From an uncultured Candidatus Saccharibacteria bacterium (GTDB lineage: Bacteria; Patescibacteriota; Doudnabacteria; UBA920): 64,000 bases of DNA. The translations under genes and the position numbers were made by a program. Position 1 is the first letter of the stretch. Each line of letters begins with the position of its first letter. The notes under the pieces were generated by a model that worked only from the letters and a program-made list of their open reading frames with translations, ran no database searches and was not told where the DNA came from. Location of the stretch: the NCBI GenBank assembly GCA_964348935.1, contig CAYGEJ010000003.1, forward strand, positions 7,287 to 71,286, read 5' to 3'. Shown in pieces: positions 4,186 to 62,363 of the stretch.

Positions 4186-4248
4186 ATTTTTCTTGCTCCT
4201 TAAAATAAGTTTTTGTATAATTAATTATACCATATTTTAATTTAATCT

Positions 4249-4277
4249 AAAAGCCCACCAAATTATGGTGGGCTTTT
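4249..4277 (-). terminator. Intrinsic terminator AAAAGCCCACC-AAATTA-TGGTGGGCTTTT, 3' of the giant surface-protein gene
   Basis: Perfect 10-bp stem with flanking A/T tracts. Confidence 0.6.
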
Positions 4278-4294
4278 ATCGAGCTAAATTTACC

Positions 4295-7200
4295 TTAAGG
4301 AATTTCAATAATTATTGGTACGCCTTTTCCAGTGTTAAACAAGATTAAAGGGGTGGAGCTAATTGGAGTAGTGGCCGCAACTCCAGCGCTTCTATTATAA
4401 CCAATTATGAACGAGTTTTGGAATCTGGCGGTAGACTGTGTGTATCCGGTTGGTATTGCTAATTGAGCTTCAAAAGTTAAAGCTCTTCTTAGTCCACTTG
4501 GGACATTATTTGCTGTTCCGGTAAGATTAAATACCAAAGTCTGGTTTGGAACCGTTCCAAATGCACAATATCGATTATTACCACTAGGCGTACAAGAACT
4601 ACCAGCAACTGCTCCGTCGTAAGTTAACTTTATTCCATTATAATAGGCGTTAAAGTCGGACTTGGTTGAAGGTTTCACCAAATTTGTTAAGGTATCCCTG
4701 ATAGTAATATTGGAAGAAGTTCCAGTACCACCGTCATTACACAAGTTAATTTGGAAAGTTACCACGTCGTTAAGTTTCAAATTAACCCCACCTGATAACG
4801 GATCTGTGCCTCCACAATTATTACTAGAGTATGCTGTTCCATTTATTCCAATAATATCTTTATCGGAAGTATTTAAGTTACCTGAGCCACAAGCTAAAAC
4901 CGCAGTCGGATTAAGGTTAGCTCCGCTATTTGGCGCAACTTTGGCTGTCTCAACTCCGCCAACTACAGCAGAAACCCAATAGTAATAAATACCTGCAGAA
5001 ACTGAATTTGTCCAAGTTAATGAAGTTAAACCACTCTGTACTAAATCTCCAGCTACCGGCGCTGACCCGGTGGTATTTCTGTAGACGTTGTATGAGGTCG
5101 CACTCGATACTGCAGACCAATTTATAGTCATTTGTGCGCAGGTTGAATTATCCAAAGAAACAGTGGTTGGACCTGGACCCCCAGATGGTGCGGTAACCGT
5201 GTAGGTAACTGTTAAAGTTCGACTGGTTGGATTCGAAGCTGGATCAGTTACAGTAATTATACAAGTATGAGTACCTACACCTACCGTACTTGGGCTATCC
5301 ACAGTAATTGCAACAGGTGTATATTGACCGACCGGAGATGAAGGCACAGCTCCAGTAACTGCAGGACCGGCATTATTAACTCCATTTACCCTACACCAGC
5401 TTTGGTTGCTAATTTCAGAATGCCAGACATCCGCACTACCAGTACTAGTAATTTGCAAAATTTGCTGGGAAGGAGCTGGAGAACCCGTTACTCCACTGAA
5501 AGACATTGTAGTTGGATTAAGCACAAATGAAGCCTGTGGTGCAGCGGTAACATCAACCGTGTCAACAACATTGCTTTGAGCGCAGACATTTGAACCAGTT
5601 CCTGCATTTAAGCTACAGGTAACTGTTTGAGTTCCGACTGTTGCCCCAGCAGTACAGTTAAACACTGCGGTGGTTTTATCATAAGAAGCCCATGTACAAG
5701 TACCACCACCTGTGACACTTGCGGTAATAGCATCTATACCGCTGCTGTCGTAATCACAGCGTGTAGTAAACGCCCCTCCTGCGGTAACTGAGGATGGAGA
5801 AACACTGCTTCTGGTAGGATCCGGGTTGTAATGCAAAGGTTCGCAAACCGGACCACCTCCGGAAGCAGTGCAATAATAATGGATAGTTCCGTCCGAGTTT
5901 CTCTTGGTTTGCCATGTTCTATTATTTACATCTGTCCACCTAAAAGGCTGCCCCCATGACTTTGGCGAAACACCTAAGTTTGTCCATGTAATATCTGGTG
6001 CTGGTGGTACCCATCCTGTGTTGGTATTCCATTTCAAATAAGTATTATTGTCTGTACCATAGTGGTAAACACCCCAGGCTGCAGGCGTATCTGTAAATGG
6101 CGGGTAATTTGTTATACCATTTAGGAAATCATAAGAGGAATTCCAGACACAAGGATTACCTAGAGAATAATTACAAGATTGATAGTGTATATTATTTCCC
6201 CAACCCCTTACAACCACAGCGTTTGCCCAATTATTTTGAATATTAGGTGTATTTGGCAAATAAATTCCAACCGGCTGGCTTGGAGTAGAACCACCACCAG
6301 GAATCTCTCTCCAGGTACTGTCACAAATAGCTTGATAGGGATTTACAACAATATTCCTTGTAAAACTGTCATTGTTGGAAGTACTTCCACCCCCAAAACA
6401 AACTATTGAATGAGTATCAGAGGCGGTTACACCTCCCAAAGGAGCGCTTCCATTTGCAGGCCAAGTAGTACCCAAAGAAGTAGCACCTCTAAATATTTCA
6501 CAATTTGTAGCATTGGTAGATGTCCAGACAAGCCCGCCTGTACTATTAGCAACAACATTTATTGGTCCGTCTACTGGTGCGCTTTGAGGCACGGAATCTC
6601 CCCAACCTTTAATGTCTACAACGGGAGCAGGTGCAACATTATAATTAATTCCTGCATCTTGGGGGTTATTAGTTGCGTTGGAGTCTGAAATACGAATTCC
6701 GCAGTCGCTATGCGGACCCACACCCACTATATTTGGAGCGCTTACTGTAACTGTTACATTTTGCGAAGTCCCGGCAGGAACAGTACCAGAAACTGCGCTT
6801 AAATTACACCAAGTAGCAGCACCATTCCTACTAAAAGTCCAGTTTAAAGACGAGCTACCGGTATTGGCTATATTTAAAGTTTGACCTGCAGGAGCTGTAC
6901 CACCGAAAATTCCGTTGAATGTCAAGTTTGTTGGCGAAAGTACTATTGTAGGCTTAAGAATATTACGAGTAAAGCTATCGGTATTAGAGGTTAACCCAGT
7001 AGAGCCTGTACAAACTATAGAATGCGTGTCTGACGAACTTACACCTCCCAAAGGAGCACTTCCATTTGCAGGCCAAGTAGTGCCCAAAGAAGTAGCACCT
7101 CTAAATATTTCACAACTTGAGGCATTGGACGTCCATATCAGACCTCCGGAAGTCATAGGATTAACATTAATTGGTCCGTCTACTGGTGCGCTTTGAGGCA

Positions 7201-8752
7201 CAGAATCTCCCCAACCTTTAATGTCTACAATAGGGGCGCCTACAATATTACGAGTAAAGCTATCGGTATTAGAGGTTAACCCAGTAGAGCCTGTACAAAC
7301 TATAGAATGCGTGTCTGACGAACTTACACCTCCCAAAGGAGCACTTCCATTTGCAGGCCAAGTAGTGCCCAAAGAAGTAGCACCTCTAAATATTTCACAA
7401 CTTGAGGCATTGGACGTCCATATCAGACCTCCGGAAGTCATAGGATTAACATTAATTGGTCCGTCTACTGGTGCGCTTTGAGGCACAGAATCTCCCCAAC
7501 CTTTAATGTCTACAATAGGAGGACATGCAGAAAGAGCAACTGGAGCACTTGCTCGAGTTGCAGAAAAGTTTCCAGAGGGGTTATGTAAGGAGTCTACCCA
7601 ATAATAATAAGTAGCTCCCGTAGGAGGATTGTCTACAAAACTTGTTACGTTTCCAACAACAGCAAAGGGCGTTGCAGGCTGCGCATTAGTAGTATGTCTA
7701 TAAAGCCTATAAGCATTTGCGTCCTGACCAGTGCCCCAAGTTAAAGTAATAGTTCTACTTGGGCAAATCCCTGTTATTGTATTTAAAAATGCAGGAACAC
7801 CTGTAATAACACGTAAAACCGGGTAAACAGTTGCGGTAGGCCCGGCGGCATAACCAACCCCAGTAACCGTAATTGAATAGTTACCAACACCAAGACCTGA
7901 AGTATTATTAACGGTTAGGGTGGCGGTATCATGTCCAAATGTAGTTGGGTCAACTACATTTGGCTCTGGGTCGCCATCTGAATCATAACTTGTTAGGGTT
8001 GGAGTAATAGTACAGTTTGCTCCCGCAGGACATACTGCCGACAAAGTTACCTTATTATAAAATCCTCCAAGCATTCGTACAGTTAAAAAATAAGATGTAC
8101 TACCGCCTCTTGTAATTGTTCTTGAAGAAGGGTCAACTATTATTTGAATACCGGGAACTACAACTGGAGGACAATCGCTTGAACAGTTGGCATTATTTTC
8201 TCCGGAAGAACAATAGGAATCACCACAGTATGGACCAACACCACTAGTGGTACTGCAAGTAGGATCTACCGGTTGGCAACTTCCCGGCGAACCAGCAGAC
8301 AAATCACAGAAAGTGTCACAAACAATGCTAGGAGGATGTGGACAATCTGCATTAGTTGAACAACCGCTTACAGGGGCAGAAGAGCAGGTATTTTCCTGTA
8401 AGGTTTTTGCACAAACCGCTCCTGGAGCAGACTGGGTTCCAGTAAAAACGCCCGTTACATCATCGTAACAATTCAACGATGCTATTGCATATGAGTAGCT
8501 GCAAGACTCGCATGTAGAATAAATTTGCTGTCCTGCGGGAGTAAAAGTGCAAACACCAGTTAGCTCTCTGGTACTAGCATTAGGATCAGGACCAGAACCA
8601 CAACCTGTAGGGAGCCCTGAAATACAGTATGCATTTACTTGAAAAACATAAAAAAAAGAAAAAATAAATAAAAATACAACTAGAAATTTAAAATTAAATA
8701 TATAATTATTTAAGAATAAAAAACTGCTTCTTATTAAATTTTTAAAATTCAT
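4295..8752 (-). CDS. Giant secreted/cell-surface protein: signal peptide, Cys-rich N-terminal region, then Thr/Ser/Gly-rich beta-domain repeats (Fn3/Ig-like)
   Basis: 1485 aa. N-terminal hydrophobic segment ends ...QVNA. More than 40 Cys fall in the first 200 residues. A 95-aa module occurs 3 times. Confidence 0.7.
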   Translation of the reverse strand: MNFKNLIRSSFLFLNNYIFNFKFLVVFLFIFSFFYVFQVNAYCISGLPTGCGSGPDPNASTRELTGVCTFTPAGQQIYSTCESCSYSYAIASLNCYDDVTGVFTGTQSAPGAVCAKTLQENTCSSAPVSGCSTNADCPHPPSIVCDTFCDLSAGSPGSCQPVDPTCSTTSGVGPYCGDSYCSSGENNANCSSDCPPVVVPGIQIIVDPSSRTITRGGSTSYFLTVRMLGGFYNKVTLSAVCPAGANCTITPTLTSYDSDGDPEPNVVDPTTFGHDTATLTVNNTSGLGVGNYSITVTGVGYAAGPTATVYPVLRVITGVPAFLNTITGICPSRTITLTWGTGQDANAYRLYRHTTNAQPATPFAVVGNVTSFVDNPPTGATYYYWVDSLHNPSGNFSATRASAPVALSACPPIVDIKGWGDSVPQSAPVDGPINVNPMTSGGLIWTSNASSCEIFRGATSLGTTWPANGSAPLGGVSSSDTHSIVCTGSTGLTSNTDSFTRNIVGAPIVDIKGWGDSVPQSAPVDGPINVNPMTSGGLIWTSNASSCEIFRGATSLGTTWPANGSAPLGGVSSSDTHSIVCTGSTGLTSNTDSFTRNILKPTIVLSPTNLTFNGIFGGTAPAGQTLNIANTGSSSLNWTFSRNGAATWCNLSAVSGTVPAGTSQNVTVTVSAPNIVGVGPHSDCGIRISDSNATNNPQDAGINYNVAPAPVVDIKGWGDSVPQSAPVDGPINVVANSTGGLVWTSTNATNCEIFRGATSLGTTWPANGSAPLGGVTASDTHSIVCFGGGSTSNNDSFTRNIVVNPYQAICDSTWREIPGGGSTPSQPVGIYLPNTPNIQNNWANAVVVRGWGNNIHYQSCNYSLGNPCVWNSSYDFLNGITNYPPFTDTPAAWGVYHYGTDNNTYLKWNTNTGWVPPAPDITWTNLGVSPKSWGQPFRWTDVNNRTWQTKRNSDGTIHYYCTASGGGPVCEPLHYNPDPTRSSVSPSSVTAGGAFTTRCDYDSSGIDAITASVTGGGTCTWASYDKTTAVFNCTAGATVGTQTVTCSLNAGTGSNVCAQSNVVDTVDVTAAPQASFVLNPTTMSFSGVTGSPAPSQQILQITSTGSADVWHSEISNQSWCRVNGVNNAGPAVTGAVPSSPVGQYTPVAITVDSPSTVGVGTHTCIITVTDPASNPTSRTLTVTYTVTAPSGGPGPTTVSLDNSTCAQMTINWSAVSSATSYNVYRNTTGSAPVAGDLVQSGLTSLTWTNSVSAGIYYYWVSAVVGGVETAKVAPNSGANLNPTAVLACGSGNLNTSDKDIIGINGTAYSSNNCGGTDPLSGGVNLKLNDVVTFQINLCNDGGTGTSSNITIRDTLTNLVKPSTKSDFNAYYNGIKLTYDGAVAGSSCTPSGNNRYCAFGTVPNQTLVFNLTGTANNVPSGLRRALTFEAQLAIPTGYTQSTARFQNSFIIGYNRSAGVAATTPISSTPLILFNTGKGVPIIIEIP
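6959..7528. repeat. Two perfect tandem copies of a 285-bp unit (95 aa) inside the giant gene; a diverged third copy lies at roughly 6390-6690
   Basis: Identical text from 6959 and from 7244. The overlapping plus-strand ORFs 6915..7196 and 7221..7481 translate identically. Confidence 0.85.
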
Positions 8753-8881
8753 ATTTTTATTTCAATTATACTTATTTTTTATATAATAATATTATAACAC
8801 ATTTTTTAACAGTACATAAGTAAACACAAGTTGATAACTTTACTAATTATAAAAAATACATTAGCCGATAAATTTAAAGCT

Positions 8882-8915: not shown

Positions 8916-8958
8916 AATCTTGGTAGATCCTTACCAAGTCCAAGGAGGACTTGAAGCG

Positions 8959-11344: not shown

Positions 11345-11842
11345 TTAGTTAGCAGGAATTGTACTGGAAAGGTTTTGCACTACGGTTACATCTATTGTAA
11401 CTTTTTTAGATAAATCATTTTGGTCAACCAAAATATACGCACGACCTGCATCTTTAGTTGCGTTTATGGTAAAAATTTTAGCTTGTTTATTTTCAACCAA
11501 AGTTGTTGCCCACCCCATATTAATCAAAAACTTCTCATACTCAATAGCAGCAGTTTTTTGAGCTAATTTACTTTCATAAATTAAAGTTCCCTGCACCGTA
11601 CCACTGGTAGCATTACTATTACTTGAAGACCTCGATATTACATTAGCACCAGGCTCTAATATCCATTCGGCGGTTATTCCCGGTGGATACATCTCTGCTA
11701 GAACAACTGTTTGTGATTCTTTTTTGTCTTCAATTATAGTTTGTGTAAACTTTTTATTCAAATATCCTCTTAAATAAAAAATTATTCCACTAACGAAAAT
11801 TAAAACTAGTATAAGATATATAAATTTTTTTTGGTTTGTCAT
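11345..11842 (-). CDS. N-terminally membrane-anchored hypothetical protein
   Basis: 165 aa, with a single TM followed by a Ser/Thr-rich soluble domain. Confidence 0.4.
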   Translation of the reverse strand: MTNQKKFIYLILVLIFVSGIIFYLRGYLNKKFTQTIIEDKKESQTVVLAEMYPPGITAEWILEPGANVISRSSSNSNATSGTVQGTLIYESKLAQKTAAIEYEKFLINMGWATTLVENKQAKIFTINATKDAGRAYILVDQNDLSKKVTIDVTVVQNLSSTIPAN

Positions 11843-13950: not shown

Positions 13951-15243
13951 ATGCGTAAACGAACCCGATATCTACTACTCTTAGTTGGCTTTATATTCTT
14001 TCTCATTTTTGCACCTATTATTGTGCTTTATGTCAGAGGTGTCGCCTACGATTTTAAACAAGGAAGATTTGTTAAGACCGGTATTTTTGCAATTAAAACC
14101 AACCCAACCCACCTGGATGTTTTTATTAATGGCGAACTCAAGCAAAAAAAGGAAGGCGACATAAAATTCCTACTACCCGGCGAATATGAACTCCAATTAC
14201 ATAAAGAAGGTTATTTTAATTGGCAAAAAAGATTAACCATATACGAAGGTAAAGTTACCTGGGCAAGCCCACAACCTTACAAGATACATTTACTTAAACA
14301 AAATTCTCCGACCAACTTAGCTCAAGACGTATTAGATTTTTACCTTAATGACTTTAAGCTAGTCTATCTAACTAAAAACAGTATTAACATAGGGAGTATT
14401 AATGGCGAACGAGCAGACTTGATACTGCCAAAGTCAGTTAATACAATTCTTACCTCAGACAATAATAATTCATTCCTTTTAACAAATTCCGATTCCACAA
14501 CCAATAAACCTGTTGTATTATTTTTTAACACAGACACCAAACTTTTTAAAGACTTAAGTGACGTATTTATTTCTATTCCCAAATATTTGACCCTCGACGA
14601 AAACCAAGTCTACTATTTAGACGATTCTTCTCTTATTGCTTACGACATTTTAACCAAATCTAAAAAAATACTTCTCGAGAATATTAAAGCCTTCAACTTT
14701 GAGAATAATTCACTTTACTACGTTCAACAAAAAAATAACATAAATTCACTAAATATTAGTAACTCCTCTTTTACTCAAAATCAAGTCTTGGTAATCAACT
14801 TACCAGAATTTTCATCAGGACAAATAATTATCACTTTTGATAAACAAATACTTATATTGGCTGATGGTAATTTATACAAGGCCAACAACACTCTAGAAAA
14901 AATTGCTGACAACATTATAAATTTTAACTTTGACCAATTAAATTCCAATACCTCAATTTTACATTTAGGACAATTTGATTACTACAACCCATCATCACAA
15001 AACCTAAGCTTTGTCACTAGAACAAGCGAAGAAATTAAAAACTTAGTGGTTAAAAACAATATCGGCTACGCTTTCTTTATAAATAATACCGGGCTTAATG
15101 CCATAGAACTGGATACAAGGGATAAACAAAATCAGTATCTCTTAAGCCAAGGTACTGAAATAAAAAAGTTTCGTATTTATAATTCAGAACAAAATTTAAT
15201 ATTTTTAGACCAAACTTCGCTTAAAAATCTTGAGTTGCGATAA
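13951..15243 (+). CDS. Membrane-anchored protein with an N-terminal PEGA-like domain
   Basis: 430 aa. N-terminal TM, then LPGEYELQLHKEGYFNWQKRL (PEGA-like). Asn-rich beta-rich remainder. Confidence 0.45.
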   Translation: MRKRTRYLLLLVGFIFFLIFAPIIVLYVRGVAYDFKQGRFVKTGIFAIKTNPTHLDVFINGELKQKKEGDIKFLLPGEYELQLHKEGYFNWQKRLTIYEGKVTWASPQPYKIHLLKQNSPTNLAQDVLDFYLNDFKLVYLTKNSINIGSINGERADLILPKSVNTILTSDNNNSFLLTNSDSTTNKPVVLFFNTDTKLFKDLSDVFISIPKYLTLDENQVYYLDDSSLIAYDILTKSKKILLENIKAFNFENNSLYYVQQKNNINSLNISNSSFTQNQVLVINLPEFSSGQIIITFDKQILILADGNLYKANNTLEKIADNIINFNFDQLNSNTSILHLGQFDYYNPSSQNLSFVTRTSEEIKNLVVKNNIGYAFFINNTGLNAIELDTRDKQNQYLLSQGTEIKKFRIYNSEQNLIFLDQTSLKNLELR

Positions 15244-37275: not shown

Positions 37276-39831
37276 CTAAAGCCCTCGTTCAATATCTGGT
37301 AAGGCTTTACTCATATTTTCCGCAACTGCACTGGCCTTCATAATTTCTTCTTCTACCTCCGCTCTTGGCCTGCCGTGTTTTACTCGGGACAATTGACGTA
37401 TTGCTTTTGCCTGTTCCTCGTTACCATTTCTCAAAAGTGGATAAGTGGATACATTAAACGGCTTACTAGCTGTACCATTGATCATTAACTTCATATACGC
37501 GTTATAACGGTCAATATTTACTAGATCAAACTCATTAAAAGTCGGTTTGAATTCCTTTGCCATAACTTCACTGTCTTCCGCACCAATTCGAAAACAAACC
37601 ATACTGCCGGCGTTACCAAATACCGCATCTCTCAAATCTTTACTTGCCGCGCCTTGAGCCCCTGCTGCCTGTTCTAGTTGTCCTAAATATTGATGGGCAA
37701 CAATTAAATTCAACCTGTACTTTCTCGCTTCAGAAAGAATAGAAGAAAAAGCATCAGTTATAAAATTTTGGAACTCATCAACATATAAGTAAAAGTCTGG
37801 GCGGTCTGCTTCTTTAGTATCAGCACGGGACAACGCTGCCATTTGTAGCTTGGAAACTATAATTAAACCGAGTAGTTTAGCATTAATTTCTCCAACTTTT
37901 CCTTTAGCTAAATTAATAAGCAAAATTTTTCGATTATCCATTACTTCTCTAAAATTAAAAGCGGATTTGGATTGACCGACGATGTTGCGCATCATGGAAT
38001 TTTCAACAAACCTACCGACTTTGGATATTAAATAACCGAGCATTTCACTTTTGTGAAAATCGGAAGTTTTTGCCATTTCTTTTTCCCAAAATAATTTTAC
38101 CACCGGATCTTTAAGCTTGCTGACTTTATACTTTTGAAATTCCGTATCGGTAAAAATCCTTGGAATATCTGTAATTGTTCCAGGATGCTCTTCGTCCGCC
38201 ATTAAAGTAAGCATTGCGTTTCTCATATTATGCTCAAACATTGGCCCAAGCATAGCCGGGTCAGTCACTAATTTGTAGAAAATAGAAATCATTTCCTGTA
38301 CTGCAAAATCTTTCTGCTCTTCACTATCCACTTCGAGCATATTCAATCCTAAAGGTCTATCCATATCAAAAGGTTCAAACAGAATAACATCTTCTGCCCG
38401 CTCTTTCGGAATATGCGGTAAAATATCTTCAATAAAATCACCGTGAGGGTCTATAATACAAAGACCCTCACCGTTCTTAATATCCTGAACCGACATATAC
38501 TTCATAATTTCCGTTTTACCACTACCCGTACGCCCAATCACATACATATGACGCCTGCGATCATCCCTCTGCATAAAAACTTTAGTTTCCTGTCCCCGAT
38601 AAATATTTCTACCGAGCAGTAACCCCTCGCTTGGTAAGTTTACTGGTGGCGATGCTTTTTTACTAACCAACCACTTAATATTCGGGGTTTCTATATACGG
38701 AGTTGGTAAGTGCCATAATGAAGCCAGCTCCTCAGTATTAAAAATACTTTTACTGCCATAGTCTCGAAATACTCTAAAGATATAATCTTTTAAAACATCA
38801 TTTTTATCCCGTCTCTTTGTTTTCAATCCGTTAAACGGAGGCATATTGTATTGTAAAAATGAAGATAATAAATTACGCATATGCACATCTGCACTTCCAG
38901 GAATAGAAGATGAAGTAATAATTCTTATATTTGTTTTAAATCCAGGACGACTGGCCTTTTCTTCCAATTTTTTTACTATCTCCTGTTGCATTGGTGTTAA
39001 CTGAATCGGCGAAGAATATCCGGACAGGTCTTTATGCGCATGCGAACCTTGTTGATTGTTTCCACTACCAACACCCGCCAAAGCTTTGCCCAAACTTCTC
39101 ATAAAACCAATAAAAAAACGATAAAAATGTCCCTTCTCAACCATTTCCGGATTCTTACCCTGCTGAATTTCCAAAGCCATATGTCTGGGCCTACCCTGCC
39201 AAGAAGTTCCAGCAGGGCTAATAATATACTGAATTACCGCACCTTCGTTTTCTGCTAATTTACTCATTGCATTGGTCAGTGAATTCAGAGGATCACTTTC
39301 CGTAGTTTTATATGTACGAAATGGATACACTGACTGCTTACTTAACTCCAATTCTGCAACTTCAACTTTACCGTCTTTTTGAAACGGATTATACCCGGGC
39401 ACTTCTTCAATAAAAGCATGCGGATACTGTGCTTGAATTTGTTTTTCCACTAATTGCTGTAAATGCCTTGGGCAATTTACATAAAAAGCAATTTTTTTGT
39501 CGGTACAAGCAATTTCAAAACTAAAATAATCCTTACCTAAAAGCCAGCCCTTATAATGACCACTTTCTGAAAGCGAGGTAAATAATTGCTCTGCTACTGA
39601 AATTAAAAGCTTTTTCTCTTCTTCATTTTTTGGCCGACTATCATCTTTGTCAGGTGAGCCATCTTTTGGCATTTGAATTTCCAAAAATACCCAGTCCTGA
39701 ATTCTTGGTACTATATGTTTGGTATGATACCTATGGATTTTGTAGTAATAAAAAAGAACAGCAAAAAATATTGCTGTCAGTCCAATTAAAACTAGCACTG
39801 TTATATTGAATGTGCTTAACTCAAAAATCAT
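37276..39831 (-). CDS. Membrane-anchored VirD4/TraG/TraD-like (type IV coupling protein-like, FtsK/HerA superfamily) P-loop ATPase
   Basis: 851 aa. N-terminal TM, Walker A VIGRTGSGKT, Walker B FYLYVDEFQNF. The NLIVAHQYLGQLEQAAG...VFGNAGSMVCFRIG segment resembles the TraG-D C-terminal motif. Confidence 0.55.
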   Translation of the reverse strand: MIFELSTFNITVLVLIGLTAIFFAVLFYYYKIHRYHTKHIVPRIQDWVFLEIQMPKDGSPDKDDSRPKNEEEKKLLISVAEQLFTSLSESGHYKGWLLGKDYFSFEIACTDKKIAFYVNCPRHLQQLVEKQIQAQYPHAFIEEVPGYNPFQKDGKVEVAELELSKQSVYPFRTYKTTESDPLNSLTNAMSKLAENEGAVIQYIISPAGTSWQGRPRHMALEIQQGKNPEMVEKGHFYRFFIGFMRSLGKALAGVGSGNNQQGSHAHKDLSGYSSPIQLTPMQQEIVKKLEEKASRPGFKTNIRIITSSSIPGSADVHMRNLLSSFLQYNMPPFNGLKTKRRDKNDVLKDYIFRVFRDYGSKSIFNTEELASLWHLPTPYIETPNIKWLVSKKASPPVNLPSEGLLLGRNIYRGQETKVFMQRDDRRRHMYVIGRTGSGKTEIMKYMSVQDIKNGEGLCIIDPHGDFIEDILPHIPKERAEDVILFEPFDMDRPLGLNMLEVDSEEQKDFAVQEMISIFYKLVTDPAMLGPMFEHNMRNAMLTLMADEEHPGTITDIPRIFTDTEFQKYKVSKLKDPVVKLFWEKEMAKTSDFHKSEMLGYLISKVGRFVENSMMRNIVGQSKSAFNFREVMDNRKILLINLAKGKVGEINAKLLGLIIVSKLQMAALSRADTKEADRPDFYLYVDEFQNFITDAFSSILSEARKYRLNLIVAHQYLGQLEQAAGAQGAASKDLRDAVFGNAGSMVCFRIGAEDSEVMAKEFKPTFNEFDLVNIDRYNAYMKLMINGTASKPFNVSTYPLLRNGNEEQAKAIRQLSRVKHGRPRAEVEEEIMKASAVAENMSKALPDIERGL

Positions 39832-53701: not shown

Positions 53702-54025
53702 TTAACTCATCTTGATTTCTACATCTACTCCTGCCGGTAAGCTCAAATTTGTTAGAGCGTCTATTGTCTTTGGAGTTGCGGAGACTATATCTATTAATCT
53801 CTTATGGACACGCATTTCAAATTGCTCTCTACTGTCTTTGTGTACGAAAGTGGAACGAAGTACAGTGTACTTTGTTTTTTCGGTTGGCAATGGAATGGGC
53901 CCAGAAATAGTAGCGCCAGTTCGCTTGGCTGTTTCCACAATCTGTTTAGCACTTTGATCAATAAGCTTATGGTCATAAGCTCTTATCTTTATGCGGATTT
54001 TTGGTACTGCTACTTCCTTGTCCAT
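53702..54025 (-). CDS. rpsJ: 30S ribosomal protein S10
   Basis: 107 aa, [15 protein letters not shown]-terminus. Confidence 0.95.
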
Positions 54026-54316: not shown

Positions 54317-54487
54317 ATGAAACAAGACCACTCGAACCTTGATTGGTTCGTAAGGGATTTCATGACAGTGATCATAATCCTTTTCGTGTTGTTTGCCCCG
54401 ACCGTCTGGCTGACACTGGATACGGCCAACATTAAAGGAAATCCATCGGCCTACGTTTGGGAGCGAACCGTCGTCGCAATTAAATAG
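54317..54487 (+). CDS. 56-aa small membrane peptide (one TM)
   Basis: A GGAGGAG Shine-Dalgarno lies 6 nt upstream. Hydrophobic core VIIILFVLFAPTVWLTL. This is the shorter in-frame start within track ORF 54224..54487. Confidence 0.45.
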   Translation: MKQDHSNLDWFVRDFMTVIIILFVLFAPTVWLTLDTANIKGNPSAYVWERTVVAIK

Positions 54488-54509
54488 CGATGGCGAATAA
54501 AACAAAAAT

Positions 54510-54557
54510 GGAAGCGTGTCGGCTCCCCCCACGCGCTTCCACCAATTTTCTTTTTTT
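54510..54557 (+). terminator. Intrinsic terminator after the small peptide gene
   Basis: GGAAGCGTG...CACGCGCTTCC stem followed by a T7 run. Confidence 0.6.
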
Positions 54558-54671
54558 ACTACTTACTACACAAGCTAATATTTCTTCTAGCAAAATTGTT
54601 TACAAATCCTTGTAACCAGTTTTGTCAGAAGGATAGCAGTATCAAATTCTTCGACAACAGGGAGAATCCCC

Positions 54672-54968
54672 ATGCAAATAGTTCTGGACCAAAAAGGCTT
54701 CTACGAAGCCGCACTGCTCGGCCTCGAGGCGCAAAAAACGCGCATCGAGAAAATGATCACCGGCATTAAGCAACTCGCCGGCAAAAAACCGGTAACGACG
54801 AACATCGCCGAGGCGGCCAAAGTCGCCATCGGCGCCCGCAAAAAGCACGCCAACGGTGCCGGCGCCAAACGCAAAAAACGGAACCTGAGCCCCGAAGCTC
54901 GCCAGCGTATCGCCGATGCGCAAAAGAAGCGCTGGGCGGCGTTCCGGAAGGACGGCGCGGCGGCCTAA
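54672..54968 (+). CDS. 98-aa basic Lys/Arg/Ala-rich protein, possibly nucleic-acid-binding
   Basis: Spot counts of about 55% GC. AGGGAGA Shine-Dalgarno. Helical N-terminus, then GARKKHANGAGAKRKKRNLSPEARQRIADAQKKRWAAFRK. Confidence 0.5.
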   Translation: MQIVLDQKGFYEAALLGLEAQKTRIEKMITGIKQLAGKKPVTTNIAEAAKVAIGARKKHANGAGAKRKKRNLSPEARQRIADAQKKRWAAFRKDGAAA

Positions 54969-55013
54969 AGGAGGAATATAGCGAAATATGATGTTTCGCT
55001 CAAACAAACACAC

Positions 55014-55050
55014 GCGGTAGAAGACACTATGTCTTTTACCGCTATTTTTT
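55014..55050 (+). terminator. Intrinsic terminator after the basic-protein gene; its stem overlaps the stop of a 10-codon mini-ORF
   Basis: GCGGTAGAAGACA-CTA-TGTCTTTTACCGC stem followed by a T-run. Confidence 0.5.
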
Positions 55051-55109
55051 ATATTTGCTAAATTTCTATAAAATCTCTAGACTACTATAAAATCACTAAG
55101 GGGGAAACG

Positions 55110-55484
55110 ATGCCTAAACACACCGTCTTCTTTATTTTTTTCGCCCTAGGCCTTAATGCCCAGCAAGCGAGCGAGAGTAAGTTCCGTTGTAGCGACGGGA
55201 ACGTAACTTGGAAACCCGGCAACACGCCGAGCACAAAGGATCAAGGGTCCGCGCAAACGGAGTGCTGCAAGCTCCGCACCAACTACCAAAACTACGGCAA
55301 AGACCAAAAAGACCTGGAGGCATGCAAAAATATACCTCCGGACAAAGAACGTCTTGACCTGTTCTATGTAGAGTGTCGTATGTTCAATATGCCGTGGTGC
55401 TCCTATCTACTCCCCAAATCAATGGGAAAGGACTACTCCACCAAACCCAAACCTCCTGCAAAGGCCACAAAGAAACTCAAGTAA
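55110..55484 (+). CDS. Small secreted Cys-rich protein (8 Cys), Lys-rich C-terminal tail
   Basis: 124 aa. AAGGGGG Shine-Dalgarno. Signal peptide MPKHTVFFIFFALGLNAQQA. The GC is elevated. Confidence 0.5.
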   Translation: MPKHTVFFIFFALGLNAQQASESKFRCSDGNVTWKPGNTPSTKDQGSAQTECCKLRTNYQNYGKDQKDLEACKNIPPDKERLDLFYVECRMFNMPWCSYLLPKSMGKDYSTKPKPPAKATKKLK

Positions 55485-55491
55485 ATCCACC

Positions 55492-55530
55492 GGTCGGGAT
55501 ACCTCTCAGGTTCCCCGACCGCATTTTTTT
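55492..55530 (+). terminator. Intrinsic terminator after the Cys-rich protein gene
   Basis: GGTCGGG...CCCGACC stem followed by a T8 run. Confidence 0.6.
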
Positions 55531-55606
55531 AATTAAACTATTTTTCTCAATGCTAATTGCATTCTCTCCTCTATGTATAAATAGAAATTTTATTTACACA
55601 TCTGCC

Positions 55607-55647
55607 AAAACAAAACTCCTCCCGATAAAATCGGGAGGAGTTTTTCT
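55607..55647. terminator. Bidirectional intrinsic terminator, serving tuf on the minus strand
   Basis: AAACTCCTCCCGAT-AAAA-TCGGGAGGAGTTT with flanking A/T tracts. Confidence 0.65.
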
Positions 55648-55673: not shown

Positions 55674-56855
55674 CTATTTTAAAATTTTTGTTACAACACC
55701 AGCACCTACAGTGTGCCCACCTTCTCTGATGGCGAATTTACCTTTTTCTTCTAAAGCTACTGGGGTAATTAACTTAACTACCAATTTTACAGTATCTCCA
55801 GGCATAACCATTTCTTGGCCTTCTGGCAAAGTAATGTCACCGGTAACGTCGGTTGTTCTAATGTAGAATTGTGGCTTATAACCTTTAAAGAATGGAGTAT
55901 GACGTCCGCCTTCTTCTTTGGTCAAAACATAAATTTCAGTTTCAAATTCTGTATGTGGGTTAATGGAACCTGGTTTACATAATACTTGTCCGCGTTCTAC
56001 TTCATCTTTCTTAGTACCACGAAGCAAAATACCAGCATTGTCCCCTGCCATACCGCTATCTAACTGTTTATTGAACATTTCAATACCAGTTACAACAGTT
56101 TTTGCTGTTGGCTTAAGACCAACGATTTCAATTTCTTCGTTAATCTTAATTTGACCTCTTTCAATTCTACCTGTGACTACAGTTCCTCTTCCTTCAATTG
56201 AGAAAATGTCTTCGATAGGCATTAAGAAAGGTTGATCAACTTCACGAGTAGGATCAGGGATGTAAGTATCTAAAGTATCAACCAATTTTAAAATAGTTGC
56301 TTCATATTCAGCATCGCCTTCCAAAGCTTTCAAAGCAGAACCACGAATAATTGGAGTATCTTTTCCAGGGAAATCATACTTTGTCAAAAGATCTCTAATT
56401 TCTTCTTCTACTAAGTCCAACAGTTCAGCATCCTGAACCATATCACACTTGTTCATATAAACAACAATGAACTTAACACCTACCTGGTTAGCAAGCAAAA
56501 TATGCTCACGAGTTTGAGGCATTGGACCGTCAGCGGCGGATACCACCAAAATAGCACCATCCATTTGAGCAGCACCAGTTATCATGTTTTTGATATAGTC
56601 AGCGTGACCAGGACAGTCTACGTGAGCGTAGTGTCTCTTGGCGCTTTCGTATTCAACGTGAGCGGTGTTAATGGTAATACCACGGGCTTTTTCTTCAGGA
56701 GCGTTATCGATAGAATCGTATGCTCTTGCTTTTGCTCCTCCAGTTTTGGAAAGCACAGTAGTAATAGCAGCTGTCAAAGTGGTTTTACCGTGGTCAACGT
56801 GACCAATGGTTCCAACGTTGACGTGTGTCTTACTACGGTCAAATTTATCAGCCAT
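55674..56855 (-). CDS. tuf: Elongation factor Tu
   Basis: 393 aa. [14 protein letters not shown] and NKCD G-motifs. Confidence 0.97.
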
Positions 56856-57721: not shown

Positions 57722-58120
57722 TTATATATCATCTAAATCTAATTTTGGACCTTCAAAGTCAAAAGAAGGGTCTATAACTTCTTCTCTCAAATCAACCGCT
57801 CCGGGACGCGTGATTGGATGACCGTCAAACCGAGTAAGATCTGGCGGATGACTAATAACAGTTGGTCCTTTTTCTACTTGTTTATTTGAAATTGCAATAT
57901 CTGATACTACCGGAGTAATATCTTCAGTTAATTGCGCGTTTAATATTTCCTTATTAATTTTTTCAACATCTAGCATTTGCTTCTGTAGTTTACCAATAAG
58001 TAGTTTTTGATACTCCTCTACAGGCATAATTACCAAACTTGCATTCCCCTGCTCGTCCAATATAAAAAACTTTCCTCCATCCGCCTTCGCTAAATTAATA
58101 AGGTCATTTAAATTGTTCAT
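57722..58120 (-). CDS. Hypothetical acidic protein
   Basis: 132 aa, no motif recognised. Confidence 0.35.
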   Translation of the reverse strand: MNNLNDLINLAKADGGKFFILDEQGNASLVIMPVEEYQKLLIGKLQKQMLDVEKINKEILNAQLTEDITPVVSDIAISNKQVEKGPTVISHPPDLTRFDGHPITRPGAVDLREEVIDPSFDFEGPKLDLDDI

Positions 58121-58533
58121 AAGTTTATAAATATTAAGCGTGTCATTCCAGACTCGCCTGCCCTCCTTTGGAGAGATCCGGAATCCATGAATATTCTATA
58201 TTAAGTTTCCCTCCACCAGCTGGCGGATTATCGAGAATGACAAATCAATAACCTCCCTTAATCCCTCCTCTGCAAGGAGGGAAATTACTGCAGTTGCAGT
58301 TATTCCTCTCCCTTTTAGGGGAGAAGGTTAGCCTGCCCGCCGTAGCCTTGGCGAAGGAGGGGTGAGGGTACTTAATCCTCTAACTCTCTTAATTATACTC
58401 GCCCGCTCGGGCATTTACAACTACTATAATTTTTGATATTCTACAGTGTCGTCACTAGCGCCGGCTAAACGACCCAATGCAAACCCGCTTTGAAGTTATT
58501 GGACTAGAATGACCGGTTGAGAGAGGAGGAAAT

Positions 58534-58755
58534 ATGGCACTTGAAGATTCAACAGCTAACACACCCCAAGACGAATCAGATCAAGCAAAACAAGCAAGGA
58601 GAATGCTTCTCCAAGAATTCTTGCTTGCATCAACAGAAAACCCAAGTCTCATCGCTGGGTTTTTTACCGAACCTATCCTTCAAGAAATAGTTGATCGAAT
58701 AACAAAGCGATCAAGACTTCTTACACAGCTGAAAACGGCCTTAAAACGCCGCTAG
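58534..58755 (+). CDS. 73-aa acidic/helical small protein
   Basis: A GAGGAGGA Shine-Dalgarno lies 5 nt upstream. Elevated GC. Followed by a T-rich terminator-like tract. Confidence 0.4.
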   Translation: MALEDSTANTPQDESDQAKQARRMLLQEFLLASTENPSLIAGFFTEPILQEIVDRITKRSRLLTQLKTALKRR

Positions 58756-58913
58756 CACTCTCGCCCAACGTCTACCGACCGCGGGCTTTTTTATTTGCCT
58801 ATTTACATTGCATAATTAATTTGTTATTCTGTACTGTCATCCTGGAACCGGCAGGATAGATACGTCCCAATGTAGGACGGAGTTAGTTTAGTACCGATAG
58901 TTAGGAGGAAACT

Positions 58914-59141
58914 ATGAGAAGATACATCATACCTTTGTCAGGGTTAGTGGTTTGCCTTGAATTATTGTATTGGGAGGCAACCCATAGAGACATGATTCCA
59001 CAGTTGTCTGACGGCATCAAAATAACGATGCTGATCATGACTCTCTTGGGGATGGGGGTGTTCGTATTCGGCATTGCCAAACCGCTGTGGAATGACTCCT
59101 GGAAGTACTGGGAGAAACGATTGAGAGGAGCGACGAAATGA
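58914..59141 (+). CDS. 75-aa two-TM membrane peptide
   Basis: TAGGAGGAA Shine-Dalgarno. Hydrophobic helices LVVCLELLYW and ITMLIMTLLGMGVFVFGIA. Its stop overlaps the next start (ATGA). Confidence 0.45.
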   Translation: MRRYIIPLSGLVVCLELLYWEATHRDMIPQLSDGIKITMLIMTLLGMGVFVFGIAKPLWNDSWKYWEKRLRGATK

Positions 59142-59359
59142 CCGCACGACACAAGTGCACTGTCTCCGGAAGAGTGCCTGTTATGCAAGCACGACGGAAT
59201 TCAAACATTATCCCATTTGGGGAAACCGTCGGTCTAGAAGGACCCACATGGAAAGGAGTACGCAAGACCGTCCCCATTCTACTATACGAAGGGAAAGATA
59301 AGTACGACACTGCATCTATCCCCATCGCATTCTGCCCGTTCTGCGGGAAAAAACTCTAA
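59138..59359 (+). CDS. 73-aa zinc-ribbon-like small protein (CxxS...CPFC)
   Basis: Start ATGA coupled to the upstream gene, preceded by GAGAGGAG. The Cys pair FCPFCGKK is at the C-terminus. Confidence 0.4.
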   Translation: MTARHKCTVSGRVPVMQARRNSNIIPFGETVGLEGPTWKGVRKTVPILLYEGKDKYDTASIPIAFCPFCGKKL

Positions 59360-59377
59360 CCAAAACCTCGGCGCAGT

Positions 59378-59436
59378 GCCCAGAGCCAGCGGTTCAATTA
59401 ATACCTGAACTTCTGGCGCTGGGCTTTTTTATTTTT
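59378..59436 (+). terminator. Intrinsic terminator after the coupled pair
   Basis: GCCCAGAGCCAG...CTGGCGCTGGGC stem followed by a T6AT5 run. Confidence 0.6.
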
Positions 59437-59463
59437 AATTCTGGTTGATCACGATTTTGATAT

Positions 59464-59502
59464 AAAAAAATTTGAGCCGTCCACCTAAAAGGCAGACGGC
59501 TC
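59464..59502 (-). terminator. Intrinsic terminator for the minus-strand gene 59514..60065
   Basis: GAGCCGTC...GACGGCTC stem preceded by an A7 run. Confidence 0.5.
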
Positions 59503-59513
59503 ATGCGCCAGGA

Positions 59514-60065
59514 TTAATCGAGAGTGATTTTTGACAGGGGGTAGGGATGTACGTATCGGTAACCTTCCTTAACATCTAAGAATTCGAACCTGACCCAGCT
59601 GCCTTTGAACCAACCACTACTTGTGGATAGGAATGTTCTGCTGGAATCGCCAATTCCCACCGTTCCGCAAGAAATCTCACAACGGGAATTCAGGGGTGGC
59701 CAAGGCAAACCATTTTCTGTGAACTCGACGCTGTTTTGGTTAGGTTCTTGTTGTTCCCATTCTAAGATGGTGCATACAACCGGAAACCGAGCTTCCAGGA
59801 TCCTTACCACAACCCTATCAAGATTACCCGGCACATCAAAAAGAAATTCGACGCGTTGTCCCACCTTCAAGTTGTGTGGGTAAATACCTCTATCCCTAAC
59901 CACCTTGGGCGTCTTATCCGAAGACGTAAGCACCAACCACAACCCTTGCAACCCAATAATGCTTTTGCATGGCTTAAATGGGAAAATTATAATAAAAAAC
60001 CCTGCAGCTAAAATAGAAAGGACAGCGACTACAATCATCACGATAGCCTGACTTAAAATCTTCAT
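59514..60065 (-). CDS. N-terminally membrane-anchored extracytoplasmic protein
   Basis: The start was set at the internal Met (MKIL...), which follows a GGAGGAGAAGAG Shine-Dalgarno; the track ORF begins 8 codons earlier at a non-ATG start. One TM. The body has moderately elevated GC. Confidence 0.45.
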   Translation of the reverse strand: MKILSQAIVMIVVAVLSILAAGFFIIIFPFKPCKSIIGLQGLWLVLTSSDKTPKVVRDRGIYPHNLKVGQRVEFLFDVPGNLDRVVVRILEARFPVVCTILEWEQQEPNQNSVEFTENGLPWPPLNSRCEISCGTVGIGDSSRTFLSTSSGWFKGSWVRFEFLDVKEGYRYVHPYPLSKITLD

Positions 60066-60130
60066 CTCTTCTCCTCCAGTTTGTATCAAAAAAACACTTT
60101 ATAACAATTTCGCGCTTATGTCAATTGTAA

Positions 60131-60239: not shown

Positions 60240-62363
60240 TTACATACCTTTTCTTACGTTGATACCCGCGCGAGATTCAATAATCTTAGCAGCAACGTTC
60301 TTTGGTACTTCTGCGTAATGGTCAAATTCCATAGTGTAGGAAGCTTGACCTTGAGTCATAGAGCGAAGTGCTGTAGCGTATCCGAACATTTCGGAAAGCG
60401 GAACAAAACTGTCTATAACTTTCAAATGCAAGCGGTCTGTCATTTCGTTAATTTGAGCTCTCTTAGAGTTCAAGTCACCAATAACATCACCCATGTTTGT
60501 TTCTGGAGTTATAACTTCAACTTTCATTATAGGTTCCAAAATAATTGGGTCGGCACGCTTAATGACTTCTTGCAAACCTTTAGAAGCAGCAATTTTGAAA
60601 GCCATTTCGCTAGAGTCAACATCGTGGTAAGAACCGTCGTAAAGAGCAATTCTAAAGTCTACAAGTGGGTAACCGGCAATAACACCGTTAGCTGCAGATT
60701 CTTGAATACCTTTGTCGACTGGTTTAATAAATTCTTTTGGAATAGCTCCACCAACAATTTCGTCGACGAATTCATAACCTTTACCGCGTTCAAGAGGTTC
60801 GGCACGTAAGTAAACGTGTCCGTATTGACCTTTACCACCAGACTGACGAATATATTTACTTTCAGCAGTTGCAGTATTCTTGATGGTTTCTTTGTAAGCT
60901 ACTTCTGGTTTACCAACATTAGCCTCTACTTTAAACTCGCGCTTCATACGGTCAACAATAATTTCAAGGTGCAATTCACCCATACCGGAAATAATTGTTT
61001 GTTGAGTTTCTTCGTCACCGCGAATACGGAAAGTTGGGTCTTCTTCGGCAAGCTTAGACAAAGCAATACCCATTTTTTCTTGGTCAGCTTTGGTCTTAGG
61101 CTCAATAGACATAGAAATAACTGGCTCAGCGAATTTAATGCGTTCAAGCATCATTGGTTTGTCTACGTCGCAAAGAGTATCTCCAGTAAATGTGTTTTTA
61201 GGTCCCACAAGAGCACAAATGTCTCCAGCAAAAACTTCTTTAACTTCGTCGCGTTCGTCGGCACGCATACGAACAATACGTCCTACGCGTTCCTTGTCGC
61301 CAGTTCTGGCGTTAAGTACATAACTCCCAGCTTCAAGTTTTCCAGCGTAAACGCGGAAGAAACAAAGTCTACCTACGAATGGGTCGGTAGCAATTTTAAA
61401 AGCCAAAGCTGTAAATGGCTCTTCATCGCTTGGTTTGCGCTCTAATGGCTCACCGGATTTTAATTCAGTTCCTTTAGTATTTCCTCTGTCAATTGGACTT
61501 GGTAGAAAATTTACAACGGCATCCAACACTGTTTGTACAATAATACCGCGTCCGTCTCCGCCAAGTACTGGAAAGAATTTTCCACCTTGAACAGACTTAC
61601 GAATCGCCCCTAAAAATTCTTGTTCAGTTAATTCTTGTCCGCCCAAATACTTCTCCATTAATACATCATCAATCTCAACTACTTTTTCAAGCAATCTTTG
61701 ACGATATTCTTTACACTTTTCTACCATATCGGCAGGCACTTCACCAACAGTAAATTCCTTATCAGTAAAATCTTTATAGGTATAAGATTTCATACCAACA
61801 AGATCTACTACTCCGTTTATTTCTTTTTCAAAACCAATTGGTAATTGAATTGGAAAGGCATTTGGTGAGAGGCGTTTTAAAATGGAGTCTAAGGACTTAT
61901 AAAAATCTCCTCCAGTTTGGTTTATTTTGTTAATAAAACAAATACGAGGAACATTATACTTGTCGGCTTGGCGCCATACAGTCTCAGACTGTGGCTCCAC
62001 ACCCATTTTACCGTCGAATACAGTAACAGCACCGTCTAGCACACGTAAAGAACGCTCTACTTCTACTGTAAAGTCTACGTGACCTGGAGTATCTATAATG
62101 TTAATTTTGTGTTTAACATCTCCAGCTAATTTAATAAATTTTGGCGCCCAGTAACAAGTAACAGCGGCAGCAGTAATTGTAATACCGCGTTCACGTTCTT
62201 GTTCCATCCAATCGGTTGTGGTCTCACCTTCGTGAACCGCGCCAATTTTGTGGGTCATACCGGTGTTGTATAAAACACCTTCAGTAACAGTGGTCTTACC
62301 AGCGTCAATGTGAGCGATAATACCAATATTACGGGTAACTTCTATGGGATATTCTCTTGGCAT
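60240..62363 (-). CDS. fusA: Elongation factor G
   Basis: 707 aa. [14 protein letters not shown] and NKID G-motifs. Confidence 0.97.

Follow-up and report, generated by a model that had tools for sequence, protein, structure and literature searches.

The stretch of DNA analysed here, referred to as the window, comprises 64,000 nt of contig CAYGEJ010000003.1 from an uncultured Candidatus Saccharibacteria bacterium of the Doudnabacteria lineage. It carries on its minus strand a single open reading frame (ORF) at 4295-8752, which encodes a giant protein of 1485 amino acids followed by a stop codon. This ORF had been recognized in a preliminary description, which gave no strand, and it is indeed present and uninterrupted; the identical 1485-aa protein is recorded at NCBI as P0175, on a contig of 75,035 nt. 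The protein is enriched in Thr, Ser, Gly, Val and Asn, in agreement with the Thr/Ser/Gly richness described earlier. Inside the gene lie two adjacent copies of a 95-aa module with identical DNA cores, and an otherwise identical gene in a second assembly holds one such copy. Taking P0002, the closest full-length homologue, as the reference for domain identities, the gene is organized as follows:

8630..8752, minus: signal peptide, residues 1-41, with predicted cleavage between VNA and Y
8153..8629, minus: disulfide-rich head, residues 42-200, with 18 Cys
7805..8152, minus: immunoglobulin (Ig)-like domain S3, residues 201-316, assigned by sequence pattern only and conserved in P0002, P0003 and P0004
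7523..7804, minus: FN3-like domain a (FN3a), residues 317-410, with a YYYW motif; paralogue of FN3b (BLASTP 2e-7)
7244..7519, minus: identical core of module copy 1 (A1), residues 412-503, equal to copy 2 at 276/276 nt
7235..7243, minus: unique 9-nt linker GTAGGCGCC (Val-Gly-Ala) separating both copies, absent from locus L001
6959..7234, minus: identical core of module copy 2 (A2), residues 507-598
6635..6952, minus: BACON/HYDIN-VesB-like Ig domain A (BACON-A), residues 601-706, paralogue of domain B (2e-14)
6344..6628, minus: module copy 3 (A3), diverged, residues 709-803
5825..6343, minus: Trp-rich orphan domain, residues 804-976, shared with P0002 alone (64-65% identity)
5519..5824, minus: Cys-containing Ig-like domain S9, residues 977-1078, 77% identical to P0002
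5183..5518, minus: BACON-like Ig domain B (BACON-B), residues 1079-1190, paralogue of domain A, 67% identical to P0002
4892..5182, minus: FN3-like domain b (FN3b), residues 1191-1287, with a match to PDB 3mpc (Fn3-like)
4298..4891, minus: DUF11-like C-terminal domain, residues 1288-1485, with an invariant tail that ends in TPLILFNTGKGVPIIIEIP at the carboxyl terminus

The array at 6959-7519 was the only tandem repeat scoring at least 80 within the window, and Tandem Repeats Finder described it as 2.0 copies with a period of 285 and 100% matches. Direct comparison of the copies gave an exact identity tract of 276 nt (6959-7234 equal to 7244-7519), and the last 9 nt of the period (7235-7243, i.e. 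GTAGGCGCC, versus 7520-7528) differed at five positions. The tandem arrangement with a period of 285 described earlier is thus correct, but its perfect identity extends over 276 rather than 285 nt. The two 276-nt copies were also returned at 100% identity by a repeat finder, together with a third copy at 76-89%. This diverged copy, earlier placed at roughly 6390-6690, does exist near that position, its true bounds being 6344-6628, and it shares 82% of amino acids and 81% of nucleotides with A1. A1 and A2 have derived changes in common relative to A3 and the module of P0002, including a one-residue deletion.

A search of 5.8 billion proteins retrieved P0001, a protein of 1390 aa that equals the window protein save for one module in place of two and is located on the 74,922-nt ENA contig ERZ27247837:k141_813485. 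Over 18.7 kb, the ENA DNA and the window DNA are identical except for the copy number and for mismatches at 7178 and 7463, which represent the same repeat offset; at this offset, ENA carries GAT, while A1, A2 and A3 all carry GAC, a synonymous difference in an Asp codon. The repeat-number variation proposed in the preliminary description is thus apparently borne out by two assemblies, with the proviso that the comparison is one of n=2 in which collapse of the repeat is possible.

Read in the gene sense, the window has the layout U-R-J-R-D, where J is GTAGGCGCC, and the one-copy allele has the layout U-R-D. Comparison of J with every junction that could arise by simple duplication of a 285-nt segment of the one-copy allele gave at best four matches out of nine, i.e. 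at least five mismatches, and such a duplication was therefore rejected; the very recent duplication suggested earlier thus finds no support in its simple form. For a clean 285-nt duplication followed by random substitutions, the calculated chance of five hits in the 9 nt and none in the remaining 552 nt is about 1e-9. Since this clustering is so improbable, the sequence points to a pair that is either old, with its core homogenized by gene conversion, or was duplicated together with a non-templated linker. Because nothing in the one-copy allele can give rise to the private linker, the two-copy allele would be the parent, from which the one-copy allele would be derived by one crossover or slippage event between the identical cores; the reverse would not be possible.

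The same linker bears on whether the two-copy form might be an expansion artefact of assembly, with the real gene having one module here. Perfect tandem repeats are a classic site of mis-assembly and two copies were seen in one assembly only, but the linker lies inside the repeat sequence and nowhere in the one-copy allele, so that reads or k-mers running from repeat end through linker to repeat start must exist, and the reading frame is kept in the two-copy form. Flanked by the repeat on both sides and absent elsewhere, the linker could not have been placed there by an assembler, which makes an expansion artefact highly improbable. The one-copy form is a single recombination, or a single assembly collapse, away from the two-copy form. 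Such a collapse, according to which both samples have two copies and the ENA short-read assembly merged a fixed, homogenized pair that shows no length variation, is the more serious technical explanation, although we regard it as rather unlikely. It is favoured by the size of the 276-nt core, which exceeds the largest MEGAHIT k-mer of 141 (as given by the record name k141_813485), and by the identity of both sequences everywhere outside the repeat. At the same time, a loop of equal coverage normally breaks a de Bruijn contig (as expected from assembler behaviour), whereas the ENA contig is continuous, and the single ENA copy carries the GAT polymorphism found in neither window copy. This private polymorphism argues that the two assemblies, at least, did not come from the same sequence.

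The fold of the module was predicted with confidence. The AlphaFold2 (AF2) model, based on an alignment of 56 sequences, is a seven-strand beta-sandwich with a predicted local distance difference test score (pLDDT) of 93.6 and a predicted template modelling score (pTM) of 0.83. A Foldseek comparison with the PDB gave generic Ig and FN3 domains only, such as Tyro3 D1 (TM-score over the query, TMq, 0.72; E=1.6e-3) and the Fn3-like modules of CbhA, and nothing at E<=1e-3. The module alignment contains a single invariant Trp, and an Asn and a pair of Cys, the latter probably joined in an intradomain disulfide, are kept in 90% or more of the sequences. There was no Pfam match to the module even at E=10. 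A profile built from four module copies was searched against 1.84 billion representative proteins and matched 383 of them at E<=1e-3 and 78 at E<=1e-10, many with 5-21 matched stretches, the consensus being PTVDIKANGSDGPITI.YNT.ATLSWTS.NATSC.ASG.WSG.K..SGS.STGNLT.S.TYTITCTG.GG.A.DSVTVNV. The module type of the window belongs to a subfamily with a GWG..VPQS.P insertion, which is also present in P0002, P0003/P0028, P0034, P0040 and P0042. No Pfam match was obtained for the multi-repeat members P0037 and P0038, and cluster look-ups of module-family proteins returned almost no names. The module is thus a member of an uncurated Ig-like repeat family for which there is no Pfam model.

The diversifying selection suggested in the preliminary description finds no support in the module itself. 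Among the 92 codons compared between A1 and A3, 24 synonymous and 16 non-synonymous differences were found, a ratio that indicates evolution under purifying selection, and A3 is 79% identical to the P0002 module. Identity to P0002 along the protein is distributed as follows:

Module, 72-79%
Ig S9, 77%
BACON-B, 67%
Trp-rich domain, 64%
BACON-A, 56%
FN3a, 49%
Cys-rich head, 49% (last 68 residues only)
S3, 39%
C-terminal domain, 36%

Conservation is thus strongest in the middle of the protein, and its ends, at 36-49%, are diverging, contrary to the picture drawn in the preliminary description.

The N-terminus appears to be that of an exported protein. The only hydrophobic segment in the chain lies at residues ~11-45, and the signal peptide, which had been noted earlier on the basis of its appearance, can be aligned with its AXA-type counterparts in P0002, P0003 and P0004, whose predicted cleavage sites fall at the matching place after TEA, VSA and VEA, each followed by Q. 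The Cys content of the following head had been overestimated: instead of more than 40 Cys in the first ~200 residues, 18 are found in residues 43-200 (11%) and 48 in the whole protein (3.2%), and instead of CxxC/CxC spacing the chain has a single CxxC and lacks CxC, its other close pairs being CxxxC and CxxxxC. The core motif of the head, DCPHPP...C.DT.C...CG..C..GE....C..DC, is invariant in four homologues, and the head had no Pfam match at E<=10.

Scanned as a whole and in ten segments, the protein matched no Pfam, NCBIfam or PHROGs family above its cut-off. The sole Pfam match of S3 was a weak one to DUF5979 (E=0.0087), the Pfam matches of FN3a were sub-threshold, and there was no significant Pfam match for S9. 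BACON_2 (PF19190) matched residues 605-670 of BACON-A with 22.4 bits, below the gathering threshold of 25, while the orthologous stretch of P0002 passes the thresholds of HYDIN_VesB_CFA65-like_Ig (PF22544) and BACON_2 (38.9 bits). The junction from A2 to this domain reads TRNILKPTIVLSP, and its conserved counterpart in P0002 reads TRTMLQPTISLNP. In FN3b, residues 1187-1272 gave the only match in the PDB sequence search (PDB 3mpc, Fn3-like, E=1.3e-4), and Pfam fn3 (PF00041) reached 14.5 bits against a gathering threshold of 25; an FN3 fold is likely, with family membership short of the cut-off. The C-terminal domain matched the DUF11 repeat model TIGR01451 with 21.8 bits (E=1.4e-4) against a cut-off of 24, P0176 scoring 22.3 bits. 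The Trp-rich domain, in which two short Cys loops accompany three hairpin-like [GDV]NN..[YW] motifs, was seen here and in P0002 alone across all the collections searched; the Pfam segment scan yielded no match to it, nor did two scans of metagenomes made with different patterns, and a word-indexed protein search was also empty, but that search missed even the self match. A profile search of the genome contigs with the N-terminal alignment yielded FN3-level matches only, with no true relatives among them.

The gene has putative expression signals of its own and is embedded in a conserved neighbourhood, which contains the following features:

8791..8800, minus: extended -10 promoter-like site TGtTATAAT (consensus match only), in a divergent intergenic region of 18% GC
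4248..4278, minus: intrinsic-terminator-like hairpin AAAGCCCACC-ataattt-GGTGGGCTTTT, read from the sequence, 17 nt past the stop codon
8959..11124, plus: divergent partner gene for a secreted protein of 721 aa (734 aa from TTG at 8920) with a Soli_cterm domain
11345..11842, minus: syntenic gene whose 165-aa product matches no family and has an N-terminal membrane anchor

Given the promoter-like extended -10 site and the clean terminator hairpin, the giant gene is probably monocistronic. The GC content at its third codon positions (GC3) is 0.267, i.e. native codon usage, and its raised GC comes entirely from second positions (GC2 0.567). Recent horizontal transfer of the giant gene was therefore rejected, the GC excess arising from Thr, Ser, Gly, Ala and Pro codons.

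A partner gene of this kind was found upstream of the giant-gene homologue and on the opposite strand in five of five loci with a homologue, namely the window, L006 (P0002), L009 (P0004), L010 (P0003) and L007 (P0006). The homologous partner genes are located at L006:281-2653, L009:4345-6735, L010:1618-3987 and L007:2032-4425. The partners are secreted proteins of 734-797 aa with pairwise identities of 29-59%; the window copy was scanned for TIGR03437 "Soli_cterm", which matches its C-terminal half at 9.7e-29, and the other four were matched to the window copy by BLASTP. The 165-aa protein has homologues of 46-50% identity at the same position beside the partner in L009 and L010, which gives three loci with the window included.

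The codon usage of the partner is discordant with its surroundings. Its GC3 is an anomalous 0.535 in the window and ranges over 0.46-0.55 across the four AT-rich loci, the window included. Nearly all surrounding genes checked have 0.24-0.34, and the giant genes of the same four loci 0.27-0.30; in L009/L010, however, an oxidoreductase gene on the flank and the small gene downstream reach 0.41-0.45. The excess spans the entire partner gene and has sharp edges. A strand effect was rejected, as another plus-strand gene (13951-15243) has a GC3 of 0.30. Recent private transfer was rejected as well, because the same contrast recurs in L006, L009 and L010, i.e. in lineages whose partner proteins have diverged to 29-59% identity.

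The wider context is chromosomal. MreB of the window groups at 90% identity with proteins of Candidatus Doudnabacteria and the Patescibacteria group, in line with the reduced-genome lineage that the preliminary description had proposed for this exported, multi-domain, beta-rich protein. The flanks consist of core genes (a histidine kinase and response regulator, mraZ-rsmH-ftsI of the division and cell wall (dcw) cluster, recJ and mreB), and genes of glycolysis and the pentose-phosphate pathway, dnaX, htrA, secY, tuf, fusA and ribosomal operons are found further around. This setting bears on the possibility that the giant protein is a receptor-binding, tail-fibre-like protein of a prophage or other mobile element, to which the sub-threshold match to PF19190, named "Viral BACON domain", might point. 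Against it, neither the protein nor its neighbours matched PHROGs, save for a marginal match of the partner to a function-unknown family (E=7.9e-4), the GC3 of the giant gene is native, the surrounding genes are core chromosomal ones, and this block of genes has been conserved across five chromosomal settings. Prophage origin was rejected on the PHROG scan and genomic context, and a role of this type appears extremely improbable.

Several other characteristics of the window were recorded. Nearly every gene across 1-64000 is on the minus strand, and the plus-strand GC skew is steadily negative. There were no tRNA genes in the 64 kb and no Rfam families at gathering score. A GC-rich island at 54400-55450 (GC up to 0.60), with rpsJ (53702-54025) on one side and tuf (55674-56855) on the other, resembles an insertion into a ribosomal-protein operon region. 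It has two plus-strand ORFs, of 98 aa (Lys/Ala-rich, 54672-54968) and 124 aa (with a signal peptide and several Cys, 55110-55484), and its sole Rfam match was weak and sub-threshold (ncr1575, 55467-55646). A second GC-rich stretch at 58100-60100 (GC 0.43-0.51) is bounded by a 132-aa ORF and fusA (60240-62363); within it, no ORF of at least 100 aa was found on either strand at 58120-59514, and there was no Rfam match at E<=0.1. Additionally, an 851-aa protein encoded at 37276-39831 on the minus strand matches coupling-protein families of the VirD4/TraG type (T4SS-DNA_transf, TrwB_AAD_bind), its surroundings being otherwise housekeeping genes.

At its C-terminus, which reads ...GVPIIIEIP, the giant protein belongs to a group with a common ending. 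All eight proteins with the DUF11-like domain (8/8, including the window protein, P0002, P0006 and P0176-P0179) terminate in ...TP[LFY][IL]P[FV]Y.G...P.I.E[VIQ]P at the carboxyl end, the window tail being encoded at 4298-4354. Six proteins of the module subfamily (P0003, P0004, P0028, P0034, P0040 and P0042) end in ...[LD]Y[QK]EF instead, after an InlB-B-repeat-like domain, and neither type of tail has a membrane segment after it. That the last residues of exported proteins should be invariant suggests, speculatively, a signal for retention, processing or assembly.

Taken together, we consider it probable that a Doudnabacteria-like cell makes from this locus a Sec-exported fibrillar surface protein of rod-like shape, with a stalk whose length varies by recombination of modules, as in Periscope Proteins. 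Such a protein would be exported via Sec, with the signal peptide cut after VNA. The mature chain would consist, in order, of the disulfide-rich head, some ten beta-sandwich domains of the Ig-like, FN3-like and BACON/HYDIN-like types plus the three 95-aa modules, the embedded Trp-rich domain and the DUF11-like C-terminal domain. The beta-sandwich chain may extend into a filament displaying the Cys-rich head together with the Trp-rich/Ig cassette, for both of which a role in binding is conceivable, and the C-terminal domain and tail may hold the protein at the envelope, possibly through partner proteins; the Soli_cterm partner and the small membrane protein are candidates for such co-operation. 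The identical 276-nt cores would be a substrate for RecA-type recombination or replication slippage. Recombination between them would remove, and in principle add, one Ig module and so alter the reach of the filament, by about 4 nm of chain length per module if the value for other Ig domains applies here. The population would then hold the two-module allele of the window and the one-module allele of the ENA assembly.

A number of results weigh against this interpretation. No known adhesive domain was found in Pfam/NCBIfam scans of the whole protein and its ten segments at E up to 10. As to anchoring, a regular-expression search and a hydropathy scan did not find an LPXTG-type sortase motif with a membrane segment and basic tail, Pfam scans gave no S-layer homology (SLH) domain or S-layer anchor, and there is no C-terminal membrane segment, so the protein might be released rather than bound to the surface. 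The AF2 model of the Trp-rich domain was unusable (pLDDT 37, from a two-sequence alignment). Only two adjacent copies and two alleles are known, and the allele with one copy was taken from a k141 contig of MEGAHIT, for which a perfect 276-nt repeat is longer than k. Moreover, there were no DNA repeats of at least 60 nt in the four homologous genes; the high-identity repeat thus appears private to this lineage, and length variation would not be a conserved property of the family.

These same observations leave some room for a protein that is not an adhesin, but a structural component of the envelope (S-layer-associated or sheath) or a secreted glycan-binding protein, in which the extra module is neutral, having arisen by duplication and gene conversion. 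It is consistent with the lack of an adhesive domain or anchor in the protein, with the FN3-like cellulase modules among the fold matches of the module, with the conserved partner and small membrane protein, which suggest a multi-protein envelope assembly, and with the lineage-private repeat. BACON-type and FN3-type domains commonly accompany carbohydrate-active proteins. On the other hand, no catalytic or S-layer homology domain appeared in Pfam/NCBIfam scans, and the succession of distal Cys-rich head, stalk and conserved C-terminal domain fits fibrillar surface proteins. The two explanations are not sharply separable, but we judge the structural or glycan-binding one to be unlikely on balance.

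The fibrillar surface protein proposed here can be compared with several known systems. The mechanism of length variation has been described for Periscope Proteins, i.e. SasG/Aap with G5-E repeats, Rib/alpha-C, Sgo_0707 with SHIRT domains and CdrA (Whelan et al. 2021, PMC8201768). Like these, the window protein is exported and multi-domain, with adjacent folded domains encoded by near-identical DNA (276/276 nt, in a minimal array of two copies), a repeat number that apparently differs between very close genomes (two at NCBI and one at ENA, the latter perhaps by collapse), presumably through intragenic recombination, a putative functional domain at the N-terminus and a conserved end at the C-terminus. 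Unlike them, it has two adjacent identical copies (one or two across alleles) against 3 to >40, its module is an uncurated Ig-like domain and not G5/E, Rib, SHIRT, Big_6 or MBG_2 (the Rib domain, PF08428, gave no match in Pfam scans), no LPXTG or other anchor was identified, and the repeat is not common to the homologues. Its host, moreover, is an uncultured Patescibacterium and not a pathogen, and the protein is known from its sequence and a single-module model.

Similarly, a long chain of beta-sandwich stalk domains combined with non-stalk domains of possible ligand-binding function, export and fast-evolving ends are shared with fibrillar adhesins (Monzon et al. 2021/2022, PMC8286594, PMC9210967). 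The stalk-type repeats of the window protein are the three modules, two BACON-like and two FN3-like domains, none of which passes a Pfam cut-off; the protein thus differs from fibrillar adhesins in having no catalogued stalk, adhesive or anchor Pfam family above threshold, and it has only orphans, the Cys-rich head and the Trp-rich domain, as candidates for binding. Large, Cys-rich and strain-variable extracellular proteins are also encoded by genomes of the Candidate Phyla Radiation (CPR), namely those of Peribacteria (Anantharaman et al. 2016, PMC4736985). The similarity extends to the CPR lineage, large size, signal peptide, Cys-rich region, proposed attachment role and apparent strain-level variation. 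The Peribacteria set, compared by description only, has 7.2 +/- 2.4% Cys and belongs to another phylum-level lineage, while the window protein has 3.2%, reaching 11% in the head only. As for individual domains, two internal ones resemble BACON_2 and HYDIN-VesB-CFA65-like Ig (PF19190, PF22544) and the C-terminal one resembles DUF11 (TIGR01451), but all three matches of the window protein are under the curated cut-offs, and these families describe folds, not function.

In these terms, the giant gene would encode an ordinary kind of variable surface protein built from uncatalogued domains, and its duplicated module is a familiar phenomenon. More unusual as leads are the conserved partner, with its discordant codon usage, and the C-terminal tails, which are invariant. 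A far-reaching combination of them may be considered, in which the giant protein, the Soli_cterm partner and the small membrane-anchored protein would form an undescribed conserved surface module of Patescibacteria, the invariant tails would act as a new retention or assembly signal that operates without a membrane segment, the GC3 of the partner would be actively maintained by selection on rare codons or mRNA, and module duplication would tune the reach of the filament; as a whole, this scenario is distinctly improbable.

Host attachment in Patescibacteria is, to our knowledge, largely uncharted beyond type IV pili. Against this background, the conserved three-gene surface block, the stalk of apparently variable length and the two orphan candidate binding domains would be suitable targets for proteomics, cryo-electron tomography and binding studies on enrichment cultures. 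The uncurated Ig-like repeat family with its 383 representative proteins is an observation that can be reused beyond this locus, and a syntenic gene that retains foreign-looking codon usage across divergent lineages cautions against reading GC3 outliers as recent horizontal transfer. Finally, the conserved C-terminal tail may mark a sorting class.

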